Shown here: positions 4,780 to 8,878 of the stretch, one piece after another
Layout of the letters: every line of letters starts with the position of its first letter
Numbering within the stretch: the first letter of the stretch is position 1
Origin: an uncultured Rivularia sp.
GTDB lineage: Bacteria; Cyanobacteriota; Cyanobacteriia; Cyanobacteriales; Nostocaceae
Direction: 5' to 3'
Assembly: GCA_963665115.1 (NCBI GenBank)
Contig: OY762007.1
Span: 2,176,001 to 2,240,000 of the forward strand
DNA: 64,000 bases
Notes under the pieces: model-generated
What the model saw: the letters and a program-made list of their open reading frames with translations, nothing else
Told to the model about the DNA's origin: nothing
The model's database searches: none
Position numbers and translations under genes: made by a program

Positions 4780-6084
4780 TTACTTATCGTGGTGCGAAAA
4801 ATTCAAAGGAACATCTAAGGGCCACTGTTTACCCTTGTAAAACAATATTTGATGAAGGTGTAAGCTACCGTAGCGAAATGAAGCTTGAAAAGATTGCAGG
4901 TAAAGATACCACATCCGCAAAAATCGCTCATCATAGGTTGTCCCCAATGATGCAATTTTTTCTCGGTTTTGAGTAAAATTCTCTGCCCAATGCTTCATAG
5001 TTTCCGCATAGTGAGCCTTAAGATTTTCACAATGGGCTACTGGTAATTTTGCTAGCCGCAGTTCTTTCATTAATTCGTGAAGCTGTGGTGCATAGCCGCC
5101 TGGGAAAATATATTTATCGCTCCAAGCTCCGTTTCGTTCGTTACTTTCGGTGACAATTGTGTGCAGAAAACCGATCCCATTGGGAATTAAAAGTTCTGAT
5201 GCTTTCTGCATGAATGTCCCAAAACTTTTTTTGCCAACTGCCTCAAACATGGCGATGCTGACAAATTTATCGTATTGCCCTTCTACCTCTCGATAATCGG
5301 CAATCTCAATTTTGATTTTATTGCTCAGACCTTTTTGTTCAATTCTTTCTTTCGCTAATGCGGCTTGTTCAACGCTTAAGGTAATACCTGTTCCAGTAAT
5401 ACCGTAATTTTCGGCAGCATAAATTAGCATTCCACCCCAGCCACAACCAATCTCAATCAGGGATTCTCCCGGTTGTAACGCCAGCTTTTTACAAATTAAT
5501 TCGTATTTTTGCCGCTGCATCTGTTCGAGCGAATCAGTTTCTTTAATCTGATATCCACAAGAATAGGTCATTGTTGGATCGAGAAAATGCTGATAGAAAT
5601 CGTTGCCTAAATCGTAGTGATGCTGTACGTTTTTGCGACTATTCTGAATGTTAGTGGGAACTGTTCGCAAACGTTGGGTTATGACCTTGAACAACAGCGG
5701 AATTGTTACCCGTTGGTTGGCTTTTGAGTACACATTCTCACGATAAAATAAGCCAATCAGTTCAACAATATTATCGTTCTCCTCATCCCACCAGCCTTCC
5801 ATATAAGCTTCACAAAACCCAAGTGCGCCAAATGTCAAAATACGGTCATAAGTATCGGGATTGTGAATTTTTAAACCCAAGGCTGGAGAAGATTCTTCAC
5901 CAAAATGGAAAGCTGTACCAGATGGATTAATAATTGTCAGATTCCCTTCTTTAATTAAAGTGAAAAGCTGATAAAGATAGCGTTCTCCACTGGGTAGCTT
6001 AGAAATAATATCGCTCCAATTCTGGTTTGAAGGAGCAATTTTTTCTTGCGTTTTTTGTAAATCTGGGGCTTGTGTTTGTGTCAT
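4780..6084 (-). CDS. cfa: Cyclopropane-fatty-acyl-phospholipid synthase family SAM methyltransferase
   Basis: Motifs [31 protein letters not shown] and FLRMWYLYL. Confidence 0.88.
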
Positions 6085-6160
6085 ATATATAGCGTCCCTA
6101 CGATTTTAAAAAGAAGTGAATAAAATATAATTTACTTTGTTCCTTATCTAAGTGTTTGAT

Positions 6161-6219
6161 AGGTTTGTAGCAAGGACTTTAATCCTCGGATTTAGGGCTA
6201 AAGCCCCTACTACGAACCT
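6161..6219. repeat. GTAG-type REP-like inverted pair
   Basis: aggtttgtagcaaggacttta...taaagcccctactacgaacct. Confidence 0.6.
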
Positions 6220-6227
6220 TTTTATCA

Positions 6228-7061
6228 TTACTTCTGCGGAAGCTTGACGTTGGTTGCTAATCCGAGGAATTGCAATAATCTAATCGTCATCCAAGTCATG
6301 TCAATTTCCCACCATTTCAATCCATGACGTGCGGAATATTGAAAAGCATGATGATTATTATGCCAACCTTCACCAAAAGTCAGCAGAGCAACCCACCAAC
6401 AGTTGGTAGAGCGATCGCCTGAATCTTGATTGCGATAGCCGATGGTATGACAAGCACTGTTGACGAACATAGTAGAGTGAATGCCGACAAACAAGCGTAC
6501 AAATGTTCCCCAAACTACAAAAGGCCATCCACCAAGCAAATATAAAATAACTCCTAACGCGACTTGCAGTTCAATATAATAACGATGGCAGAAACGATAA
6601 AATGCATCGTCGGCAATATCTTTTGTCATGCGTGGAAGTTCGGGTTTAGCAGGCACCGTATGCATTAACCAGCCGATGTGACTCCACCAGAAACCTTCAT
6701 TGGGTGTATGAGGATCTCCTTTTTCGTCGGAATGTAAATGATGTACTCGGTGATATCCAACCCAGCCCATCACACCTCCTTGAAGTGCCAAAGTCCCGCA
6801 CAAAATCAAGAAATACTCCAGCCATTTGGGAACTTGTAAGCTGCGATGGGTTGCTAAACGATGAAATCCGAAAGCAATTCCCAAACCAATAGTCATCCAG
6901 TGCAATAACACTGCGACTCCTACAGCAGCCCAGCTAAAGTTTTGGGGTAAAAATGCTAATAAGACTGCTAGATGAAGAATGACAGTAAAAATAATCACCT
7001 TCAATCGGGGAGAAGGTGGATTTAATTGAGGTAAAGAAACTGGAGATAAATTGGTAGTCAT
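6228..7061 (-). CDS. Delta-9-type membrane acyl-lipid desaturase (DesC-like paralog)
   Basis: His boxes HRLATH, HRVHH and HNNHH plus GEGWHNNHH. Start at ATG 7061 preferred because the longer ORF begins in a repeat. Confidence 0.88.
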   Translation of the reverse strand: MTTNLSPVSLPQLNPPSPRLKVIIFTVILHLAVLLAFLPQNFSWAAVGVAVLLHWMTIGLGIAFGFHRLATHRSLQVPKWLEYFLILCGTLALQGGVMGWVGYHRVHHLHSDEKGDPHTPNEGFWWSHIGWLMHTVPAKPELPRMTKDIADDAFYRFCHRYYIELQVALGVILYLLGGWPFVVWGTFVRLFVGIHSTMFVNSACHTIGYRNQDSGDRSTNCWWVALLTFGEGWHNNHHAFQYSARHGLKWWEIDMTWMTIRLLQFLGLATNVKLPQK

Positions 7062-7282
7062 GAATTTTTTTGCCCTACACCTACTTAAAGATAAAAGATA
7101 ATTTTTTGATACATTTAATACTGTGTTCCGTTCATACAGCGCTTTTCGTTTTAGTGCAATAACTTCGGGCAACCTCACCCCCTTCCCCTCTCCTTATTAA
7201 GCGGGAGGCGGGGTGAGGTTAAGTAAATTTCTGTACATACTCTAATGTCGGAACTCGGCATTAAGTAATTCTCAGATATGCT

Positions 7283-8878
7283 CTAAATAACCAAAGATTC
7301 GTTCATCTCAACTTGCTGAGACTTTTCTTTGATATTCGCTGCACGATAATCGGCTATTTGCCCTTCAATTTCATTCTGGACAACTTGACGGTAATCAATA
7401 TGATGCTCTAAAAGAGCGCACATAGTTACGTAAGAGATTAATACACTAGGATTATGCTTAAGTATCCCGAAAAGTTGACTCCAGAATTGGAATCGCGTAT
7501 TTCGTTTAATACCCTGTCGCCAAACAATAATTAATAGTGCTTTTAATTCTATTAACTCTGGCATTTTAAACTCTTTCTTGTAAGGGCGAGGCTGCATTTC
7601 CAGGTAATGGCGATAAACCCTTCCCAAGTATTTCTTTGGTTCGTATAATTCCCAGAAACACTTGACATATTCGGAGGCTAATTCTTCTATGGGACGAGTT
7701 GGAATAAAGTTAGTTAAAGAGGTTGTTTGATTGCCCGTATTGCCTTTTTGGTCAATTTCTAACAAACGCCCTTCTTTTTCTAATCGATGCCATAATGCTG
7801 TATTTGGTAGAGCTTGCAGCAAACCAAACATTGCATTCGGAATTGCAGTCGTCTCCACAAAATCAATAATGCGATCGCCTGCTCCTGCTTTTTCTCCGTC
7901 GAAACCGAGAATAAAGCCAGCCATGACTCGCAAGCCTTTACGATTAATTTTCTGAACGGCTTCTACTAAAGAATCGCGAGTGTTTTGATGCTTTTTCGTT
8001 AATGACAAACTATCCGTATCGGGTGTCTCAATTCCCAAAAATACAGAGCTAAAGTTAGCAGCAATCATTAAATCGAGCAATTCATCGTCTTGTGCTAAAT
8101 CTACTGAAGCTTCTGTTTGCAAGCTAAAGGGATAACCCCGCTCTACCATCCAAGGAATCAGTTCTTTGAGTAGAAGCTTGACATTACGTTTATTGCCGAT
8201 GAAATTATCATCTACCATAAACACCGAATGCCGCCAGCCTAAATCATACAGTGTTTGTAATTCCCCCAGCAGTTGTGCTGGAGACTTTGTACGCGGTTTG
8301 CGTCCGTAAAGTACGATAATGTCGCAAAATTCACACTGATAAGGACAACCACGGGAAAACTGCACCGACATATCGCTGTAAGCGCTTATTTCCAGTAAAT
8401 CGTATCTTGGTATCGGCGTAGTAGTAATATCGGGCTTTTCACCATTTGAGCGGAATATCCCCGAAGTTTCCCCTCTTTGAAGTGCTTCTACAAATAGAGG
8501 TAAAGTTATTTCTCCTTCATCTAGAACCAAAAAATCTACCCCTGCGGCTTGGGCTTCTTGGGGTACGGAAGTTACGTAAGGACCTCCCACCGCGACTAAT
8601 TTGTTACGCCGTTTTGCTTCGCGGATTAAGTGCAGCATATCTGGTTTCTGGACAATCATTCCGGAAACAACGATCAATTCTGCCCATTCCCAATCAGCTT
8701 CGGTTTCAGGAGCAATATTACGGTCAACTAGTCGAAAATCCCAATCTTGAGGTAGAATAGCCGCTACCGTAATCATCCCCAGAGGAGGAACAGTTACTTT
8801 ACATCCAATTAGTTCTATACTTTTGTCGAAAGACCAAAAAGATTTTGGAAACTGAGGATATAGCAGTAAAACTCGCAT
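7283..8878 (-). CDS. Cobalamin-binding radical SAM protein (DUF4070/HpnP-like class B methyltransferase family)
   Basis: N-terminal PPLGMITVAA B12-binding region; SRGCPYQCEFC (CxxxCxxC); VDDNFIGNK. Confidence 0.88.
   Translation of the reverse strand: MRVLLLYPQFPKSFWSFDKSIELIGCKVTVPPLGMITVAAILPQDWDFRLVDRNIAPETEADWEWAELIVVSGMIVQKPDMLHLIREAKRRNKLVAVGGPYVTSVPQEAQAAGVDFLVLDEGEITLPLFVEALQRGETSGIFRSNGEKPDITTTPIPRYDLLEISAYSDMSVQFSRGCPYQCEFCDIIVLYGRKPRTKSPAQLLGELQTLYDLGWRHSVFMVDDNFIGNKRNVKLLLKELIPWMVERGYPFSLQTEASVDLAQDDELLDLMIAANFSSVFLGIETPDTDSLSLTKKHQNTRDSLVEAVQKINRKGLRVMAGFILGFDGEKAGAGDRIIDFVETTAIPNAMFGLLQALPNTALWHRLEKEGRLLEIDQKGNTGNQTTSLTNFIPTRPIEELASEYVKCFWELYEPKKYLGRVYRHYLEMQPRPYKKEFKMPELIELKALLIIVWRQGIKRNTRFQFWSQLFGILKHNPSVLISYVTMCALLEHHIDYRQVVQNEIEGQIADYRAANIKEKSQQVEMNESLVI

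Follow-up and report, generated by a model that had tools for sequence, protein, structure and literature searches.

Three co-oriented genes on the minus strand of a 64,000-nt cyanobacterial stretch (the window; contig OY762007.1 of an uncultured Rivularia sp., from a genome, G000, that is 99.9% complete) encode an HpnP-like, cobalamin-dependent radical S-adenosylmethionine (SAM) protein, a DesC-like membrane desaturase and a methyltransferase of the Cfa family (Cfa). The first-pass annotation had described three lipid-chain-modifying genes here, and three minus-strand open reading frames (ORFs) were indeed present within positions 4780 to 8878. They form two separately inherited modules, the radical SAM enzyme and the desaturase-Cfa pair, which occupy one variable slot, between a major facilitator superfamily (MFS) transporter gene and a Rieske oxygenase gene, inside a larger conserved cluster whose core comprises a divergent alpha-oxoamine synthase (AOS), a GNAT-fold protein and a short-chain dehydrogenase/reductase (SDR). 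The best explanation, to which we assign a probability of roughly 0.5, is that both modules act on the hydrocarbon chains of an amide lipid, ceramide-like in kind, that would be the cluster's product.

The two-module structure was apparent from a survey of 27 genomes of the genus, in which the contents of the slot varied. All three genes stood together at the slot in nine genomes, of which one has a contig that ends short of the Rieske gene and two show frameshifts, possibly assembly errors. In 10 genomes the slot held desaturase and Cfa but no radical SAM gene (3 with a radical SAM remnant), and in six it held the radical SAM gene alone; the remaining two were a genome with a desaturase at a contig end and a fragmented genome with desaturase-Cfa elsewhere. 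The genes were thus not a conserved unit, and their earlier description as a single tailoring 'arm' was not upheld. The radical SAM gene (87-99% identity) was found in 15 of the 27 genomes, every time at this locus, while Cfa was present in 25, whatever its position. That the two modules represent alternative methylation routes was rejected, as, among the six genomes whose slot held the radical SAM gene alone, five carried desaturase-Cfa elsewhere and the sixth had the desaturase. Between some genomes of the genus Cfa and GNAT were only 79-84% identical, compared with 95-99% for the desaturase, radical SAM and AOS genes, a disparity which suggests that Cfa and GNAT alleles may be exchanged, with strain-specific lipid products as a putative result. 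The allele types of these two genes differed at active-site motifs.

The radical SAM protein combines an N-terminal B12 domain with a CxxxCxxC motif at residues 178-185, as expected of class B (cobalamin-dependent) methylases, and cobN was present in the window genome. Its B12-binding, radical SAM and DUF4070 domains give it the architecture required of HpnP, which is not diagnostic because it is common to HpnP-like proteins. Placement relative to bona fide HpnP, a check proposed in the first-pass annotation, showed the protein not to be HpnP: the motifs FWSF, PPLG and CDII matched, by eye, the rows given for the outgroup in the supplementary alignment of PMC10697835, where HpnP reads SFGTF, MPPQG and CDIP, and identity to a Methylobacterium protein with the HpnP motifs was 35% (with a very long tree branch to L135). 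No squalene-hopene cyclase was detected in the window genome with TIGR01507 and PF13243, a search that was positive in three of five other genomes. The genome would accordingly offer the enzyme no self-made hopanoid, and hopanoid methylation by HpnP was rejected for this genome on the combined evidence of the motifs and the missing cyclase.

Of 301 genomes, 123 carried widespread HpnP-like paralogues with about 65% identity to the window protein. Closer to it, at 71-77% identity, stands a group that was split from 27 of these paralogues with support 100 in a quick tree in which the outgroup branches were long and the window's group was not resolved as one clade. Members of this subgroup were counted by a gap in E-value (the identity gap lying between 72% and 68%), three second-tier hits at 68-69% being borderline, including the one on which genome G657 was counted. 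The subgroup gene stood in tandem with another HpnP-like paralogue in loci L215, L225, L233, L234, L236 and L188, and as a single copy in L214. In the window genome the widespread paralogue is frameshifted (L035 8069-9653; G000 3016068-3017595), which may be real or an assembly error. Genomes G010 and G011, each 99% complete, gave no DUF4070 radical SAM match. A Chroococcidiopsis plasmid copy of the radical SAM gene adjoins a desaturase of a different, 34% group.

Distribution ties this subgroup to the cluster. Among 400 genomes drawn from the class, 147 of which carried the AOS, the subgroup was found in 52, and 51 of these were AOS-positive; it was absent from 252 of the 253 AOS-negative genomes, and in the lone exception (G417) the contig ends within the GNAT gene, on the side where the synthase would be expected. 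In families with a patchy distribution of the AOS, subgroup carriers were AOS-positive in three of three cases (f33; baseline 12/41), one of one (f37; 9/41) and 10 of 10 (f31; 34/41), corresponding to a joint chance of 5e-4, a figure that overstates the association as kin are not independent. The single AOS-positive genome among 37 of the window's own family was also its single subgroup carrier. A different HpnP-like paralogue clade served as a rough control: four of its six fetched members came from AOS-negative genomes. Linkage was stronger evidence than co-occurrence: outside the genus the radical SAM gene lay inside a full cluster (G517), between AOS and GNAT (G388), next to the AOS (G371) or 7.4 kb from the synthase across cluster genes (G317), and in G040, G117 and G037 it adjoined the hydroxylase gene, accompanied on sufficiently long contigs by Mpo1-like and amidohydrolase genes. 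Membership of the radical SAM enzyme in the cluster's lipid pathway is accordingly the part of the interpretation held with most confidence, and is rated as probable.

For the desaturase-Cfa pair the link to the cluster is weaker than for the radical SAM gene, since it consists of co-occurrence together with linkage within a single lineage. The clade of the Cfa enzyme contains only cyanobacterial members (support 100) and was represented in 3 of 300 genomes of a phylum-wide draw (68-74% identity; 10 further matches at 36-41% were generic Cfa), and all three carriers were AOS-positive. Of the genomes reached through Cfa loci, 23 of 24 had the AOS (21 of 22 outside the genus); the one lacking it is 3.2 Mb in size, and its six congeners all have the gene. 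In family f37 (61 genomes searched, 33 of them with known AOS status), Cfa was present in six of nine AOS-positive and in none of 24 AOS-negative genomes (p 8e-5 by genome). Those of 30 metagenomic loci of the Cfa clade that carried cluster genes were genus-like, except for L282 (AOS 82%), in which Cfa sits in the cluster slot of a more distant lineage, yet with an allele that nests among the genus alleles. The desaturase adjoined Cfa in 9 of 24 non-genus genomes. It forms its own clade (support 99) beside a group of DesC-like housekeeping desaturases, has three His boxes at 67, 104 and 234, and was present as an extra copy in Cfa carriers even when unlinked; it was not found in two AOS-positive, Cfa-negative and five AOS-negative genomes, and in family f37 it likewise tracked Cfa, judged by identity only. 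On these grounds the pair somewhat more probably than not belongs to the same pathway.

The window Cfa keeps E281, H308 and Y359, presumably the bicarbonate ligands of cyclopropane fatty acid (CFA) synthases, each aligned with its identical counterpart in 6bqc and 5z9o. Its two-domain CMAS build, SAM motif and Glu/His/Tyr site are thus those of a cyclopropane synthase, while the scores remained below the NCBIfam CFA-synthase cut-offs (338 against 600 bits for NF053839, and 326 against 400 for NF008686). As the catalytic residues are kept, a cyclopropane ring would be the default product. Around E281 the window allele reads SIAMFEAV, as in seven genus alleles (the window's included), most others reading SIGMFEHV; Ala thus replaces both Gly and His, the latter exchange being present also in UmaA, and a methyl- or methylene-branched chain is a possible product of such variant alleles. 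A second CMAS-like ORF, 26% identical, lies right behind the Cfa orthologue in metagenomic loci L287, L288 and L300. Methyl-alkanes are reported in heterocystous strains in the available text of PMC3903477; their synthesis by the Cfa clade is unlikely, because the phylum draw included 37 genomes from the window's family and the clade was found in none of them.

A Roseomonas plasmid carries a ceramide cluster of the Caulobacter type, and to the protein encoded there in the CerS position the window GNAT protein was 29% identical over its full length (E 1e-52). Published limits for bacterial ceramide genes (as given in the accessible part of PMC11334938) are E <= 1e-70 for Spt, E <= 1e-30 with >= 50% coverage for bCerS and E <= 1e-30 for CerR; they were applied here with the syntenic Roseomonas proteins as stand-ins for the query set of that study. 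The GNAT protein fell within the bCerS limits, and synthase, GNAT and SDR were clustered as required. The synthase remained outside the Spt limit (E 1e-17 against the Roseomonas protein in the serine palmitoyltransferase (SPT) position; 1e-39 by phmmer against the best SPT in the PDB). Its orthologues (n=65) have conserved active-site motifs of their own, FCTND.LG and NHGC, and no Ser-Arg pair, and an alignment-based model (predicted local distance difference test score, pLDDT, of 86; 36 for the single-sequence fold) displays the AOS fold without singling out SPT. For a synthase that falls short of the Spt limits and of the NCBIfam SPT models, and whose model is not SPT-specific, the 'SPT' label of the first-pass annotation was not supported. 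'Ceramide-like' is a fair label for what the core cluster, judged from its genes, would make, while a serine-derived true ceramide is rated slightly below even odds. A synthase-GNAT-SDR trio in the same order is found on a Rubrobacter plasmid (L277 8701-12068), and of all plasmid matches to the window GNAT the one encoded there has the best E-value.

No sphingolipids were found in Nostoc punctiforme according to the available text of PMC8895605, in which a BioF-type protein was tested and second AOS copies were named as untested. The protein in question, Npun_R3567 (394 aa), made no ketosphinganine; we infer that it corresponds to the second AOS of the window genome (G000 2.81 Mb) and not to the cluster synthase, so that its negative result is no test of the cluster enzyme. 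From Moorea a cerebroside has been reported, and it has no branches (PMC6272925, available text).

Gene identities, clade membership, co-occurrence and linkage were observed directly; the chemistry of the proposed pathway is inferred from enzyme families. The synthase would condense an amino acid with an acyl thioester, after which the CerS-homologous GNAT would N-acylate the condensation product and the SDR reduce the ketone, yielding an amino-alcohol lipid with an N-linked acyl chain. At an unactivated carbon of this lipid the B12 radical SAM enzyme would remove a hydrogen and put in its place a methyl group, transferred intact from methylcobalamin, and the extra desaturase would introduce a cis double bond across which Cfa would add a SAM-derived carbon. 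The fungal sphingolipid C9-methyltransferase belongs to the Cfa family. A more far-reaching version, which we consider speculative and rather doubtful, is that about a third of the sampled cyanobacterial genomes make an undescribed sphingolipid-like amide lipid, with one branch of the HpnP-like enzymes as its radical C-methylase, desaturase-Cfa as the bacterial counterpart of the fungal delta-8 desaturase and C9-methyltransferase, and Cfa/acyltransferase allele swaps giving strain-specific chains.

A number of observations weigh against a common role of both modules in such a lipid. Most carriers of the radical SAM subgroup are in families with a near-universal AOS (f27 41/41, f53 15/15), so that much of the co-occurrence reflects kinship and the carriers are not independent; the subgroup was also missing from 96 of the 147 AOS-positive genomes, making it optional to the cluster. 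Of the 54 radical SAM genes outside the genus, 7 were seen to be linked to the cluster, the other 47 being unlinked or on short contigs. The co-occurrence with the synthase operon that had been proposed as a check holds for the radical SAM gene by genome content and by its in-cluster position in several families, but not as general linkage. With the desaturase-Cfa pair the outcome was similarly divided: 23 of 24 genomes were AOS-positive, but no cluster gene lay in the fetched Cfa flank in any of 24 non-genus genomes (several flanks were short). The f37 test dropped to p 0.06 at genus level, five members of the genus hold the pair far from the cluster, the desaturase is sister to the housekeeping DesC-like enzymes, and Cfa shares its two-domain construction with the cyclopropane synthases that act on phospholipids.

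One alternative is that only the radical SAM enzyme acts in the amide-lipid pathway, desaturase-Cfa being an independent cyclopropanation or methyl-branching module for bulk glycerolipids that settled in the slot in one lineage. The absence of linkage outside the genus and in five of its members, the retention of Cfa in 25 of 27 genus genomes irrespective of position, the DesC-like character of the desaturase and the fact that the nearest solved structures of Cfa are phospholipid CFA synthases all speak for it. However, Cfa was found in no AOS-negative genome of good completeness (0/24 in f37 and 0/36 in the draw of the window's family), which a bulk-lipid enzyme has no obvious cause to avoid, and it occupies the slot also in the distant lineage L282, though with an allele nested among those of the genus. 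We regard this explanation as unlikely, although the strongest of the competitors.

The core genes for the AOS and the SDR also weigh against the preferred explanation. The NCBIfam SPT models scored the AOS at 112-172 bits against cut-offs of 500-670 (best, 172 against 640), it was about equally distant from SPT, KBL, ALAS and ThAOS, and it was further from the Roseomonas SPT than is the window genome's BioF. The SDR matched the CerR-position proteins of Roseomonas and Rubrobacter with E-values of only 2e-4 and 2e-11, respectively. The modules could tailor another amino-ketone-derived lipid or secreted metabolite, built on a different amino acid, heavily oxidised, GH3-conjugated and exported by the MFS transporter. 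The non-canonical motifs conserved in 65 AOS orthologues, an SDR unlike CerR, the presence of four oxygenases, a GH3 protein and an exporter, and no acyl carrier protein (ACP) or acyl-ACP synthetase gene being seen in the cluster, agree with such a product; the synthase-GNAT-SDR order and the CerS homology agree instead with bacterial ceramide pathways, and an Mpo1-like gene (Pfam: 2-hydroxy-palmitic acid dioxygenase) belongs to the cluster elsewhere. This alternative, which overlaps with the preferred explanation as regards the tailoring role, is distinctly improbable. Least probable is that co-occurrence reflects shared ancestry and habitat, with the radical SAM enzyme doing the job of the widespread HpnP-like paralogues, perhaps mid-chain methylation (methyl-alkanes, environmental hopanoids): the approximately 65% identity to those paralogues, a methyl-alkane methyltransferase still unidentified in the available text of PMC3903477 and the frameshifted housekeeping paralogue, for which the window copy could be a stand-in, speak for it, but the repeated in-cluster placement in differing gene orders in at least five families, the subgroup's near-complete absence from AOS-negative genomes and the intact housekeeping paralogue kept by most genus carriers of the window-type gene speak against it.

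Table 1. Genes and intergenic region of the cluster (window positions unless stated otherwise)
Feature	Position	Strand	Remarks
Cupin_8/JmjC oxygenase	39-857	+	
Asp/Asn beta-hydroxylase family 2-oxoglutarate oxygenase	1105-1866	+	OlsC/LpxO-like but under their cut-offs
CapA/PGA_cap family protein	1928-3184	-	variable cluster member
MFS transporter	3308-4510	-	core cluster gene
CMAS/Cfa methyltransferase, two-domain	4780-6084	-	434 aa, PF02353 E 3e-87
DesC-like (delta-9 type) membrane desaturase	6228-7061	-	277 aa; extra paralogue tracking the Cfa gene
HpnP-like cobalamin-dependent radical SAM protein, predicted C-methylase	7283-8878	-	531 aa; B12-binding + radical SAM + DUF4070
Divergent intergenic region	8879-9931	.	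1053 bp
Rieske oxygenase	9932-11056	+	core cluster gene
Divergent alpha-oxoamine synthase (AOS; 'SPT-like')	11177-12463	+	core cluster gene; predicted to use an amino acid and an acyl thioester
GNAT-fold protein	12741-13892	+	homologue of bacterial ceramide synthase
Extended SDR reductase	13889-14860	+	CerR position but weakly similar to CerR
Fatty acid hydroxylase family protein	15068-15577	+	adjoins radical SAM gene in other families
GH3-family gene	L034 13930-15627		directly left of window

The most likely start of the desaturase (277 aa), to judge from its homologues, which begin there, is the ATG at 7061 and not the GTG at 7178 to which the ORF callers extend the gene. The three genes had been described as transcribed away from the SPT-like operon across about 1 kb; the gap is 1053 bp (ATG 8878 to ATG 9932), but the Rieske gene comes first on its far side and the synthase second. 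The minus-strand run continues past Cfa into the MFS transporter and CapA-family genes, and the two 2-oxoglutarate oxygenase genes and the GH3 gene further left are members of the same conserved cluster. In other cyanobacterial families (29 AOS loci) the recurring members were AOS, GNAT, SDR, Rieske, MFS, GH3, hydroxylase, Mpo1-like and amidohydrolase genes. Mpo1-like and Amidohydro_2 genes, which are regular members in L184, L186, L188, L193, L197, L203, L262 and L268, were not found anywhere in the window genome. In part of the genus (L006, L008-L012) the roughly 6 kb that follow the synthase contained none of the GNAT, SDR and hydroxylase genes, which makes for a split or reduced core operon in these loci. 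FtsX/MacB-type ATP-binding cassette (ABC) transporter genes lie beside the cluster in several families (L034 10828-12981, L184, L186, L193, L263, L264) and are a possible lipid export route. Five CRISPR-DR5 repeats are located at 15811-16132, immediately after the hydroxylase gene.

Both ends of the intergenic region are conserved in the genus, and its middle is variable. An Rfam scan of the 1053 bp gave no match, and scans for promoters, terminators and repeats likewise gave nothing above chance; with 17 promoter-like sites observed and 17.1 in shuffled sequences, shared regulation was not supported. Four RNA runs corresponded to contigs of relatives that also span intergenic DNA, and are hence uninformative on co-transcription.

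Each part of the locus has counterparts in described systems, here compared with the available texts of the cited studies. HpnP and HpnP-like proteins (PMC10697835; bioRxiv 10.1101/2025.07.29.667474) share with the window protein the domain architecture and the predicted methylation of an unactivated lipid carbon, HpnP differing in that the window protein is 35% identical, has outgroup-type motifs and resides in a genome without a hopene cyclase. The Caulobacter Spt-CerS-CerR pathway (PMC11324152, PMC11334938) likewise has an oxoamine synthase, a CerS-homologous GNAT and an SDR in one operon; here, by contrast, synthase and SDR are under the published cut-offs, no AcpR/AasR or LptFG2 was seen in the cluster, and Rieske, GH3, 2-oxoglutarate oxygenase, MFS, radical SAM, desaturase and Cfa genes are additional. 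The two-domain fold, SAM motif and Glu/His/Tyr site are shared by the window Cfa with CFA synthases (PDB 5z9o, 6bqc, 7qos), with their non-cyclopropanating relatives BfaB/TmpB (PMC7791843) and with UmaA (7l9u), but it forms its own cyanobacterial clade with a dedicated desaturase, and no BfaA-type reductase adjoins it. The fischerazole enzymes FshD/FshF (PMC13548996) also combine a cyanobacterial desaturase with a CFAS/CMAS-family methyltransferase in one cluster acting on the fatty chain of a specialised lipid, and FshF shows that such enzymes can yield products besides cyclopropanes; FshF acts on an ACP-bound chain in a polyketide synthase (PKS)/non-ribosomal peptide synthetase cluster, whereas the window cluster is without ACP, fatty acyl-AMP ligase (FAAL) and PKS. 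The closest functional analogy is with the fungal sphingolipid C9-methyltransferase and delta-8 desaturase (PMC6920741), in which desaturation is followed by SAM-dependent C-methylation of the sphingoid chain; the window desaturase is DesC-like, and the window Cfa groups with bacterial CFA synthases among solved structures.

No paper on this cluster or on these three genes was found in a literature search that did not cover subscription journals and preprint supplements; the pathway type is already known, and neither the tailoring enzymes nor the proposed lipid were found described in the searchable literature. In their available texts, PMC8895605 states that no cyanobacterial sphingolipid enzyme had been characterised, and PMC10697835, which describes HpnP-like proteins as once mistaken for the 2-methylhopanoid biomarker gene, gives their function as unknown without singling out the window-type subgroup. 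At this locus, in a genome without a hopene cyclase, one subgroup of HpnP-like proteins is connected with a specific lipid cluster, which makes both HpnP-like function and cyanobacterial sphingolipid enzymes directly testable. If the proposed role is correct, the HpnP-like family would gain its first substrate, and a non-terpenoid one, and methyl-branched or cyclopropyl sphingoid-type lipids of mat-forming and rock-dwelling cyanobacteria could serve as lipid biomarkers.

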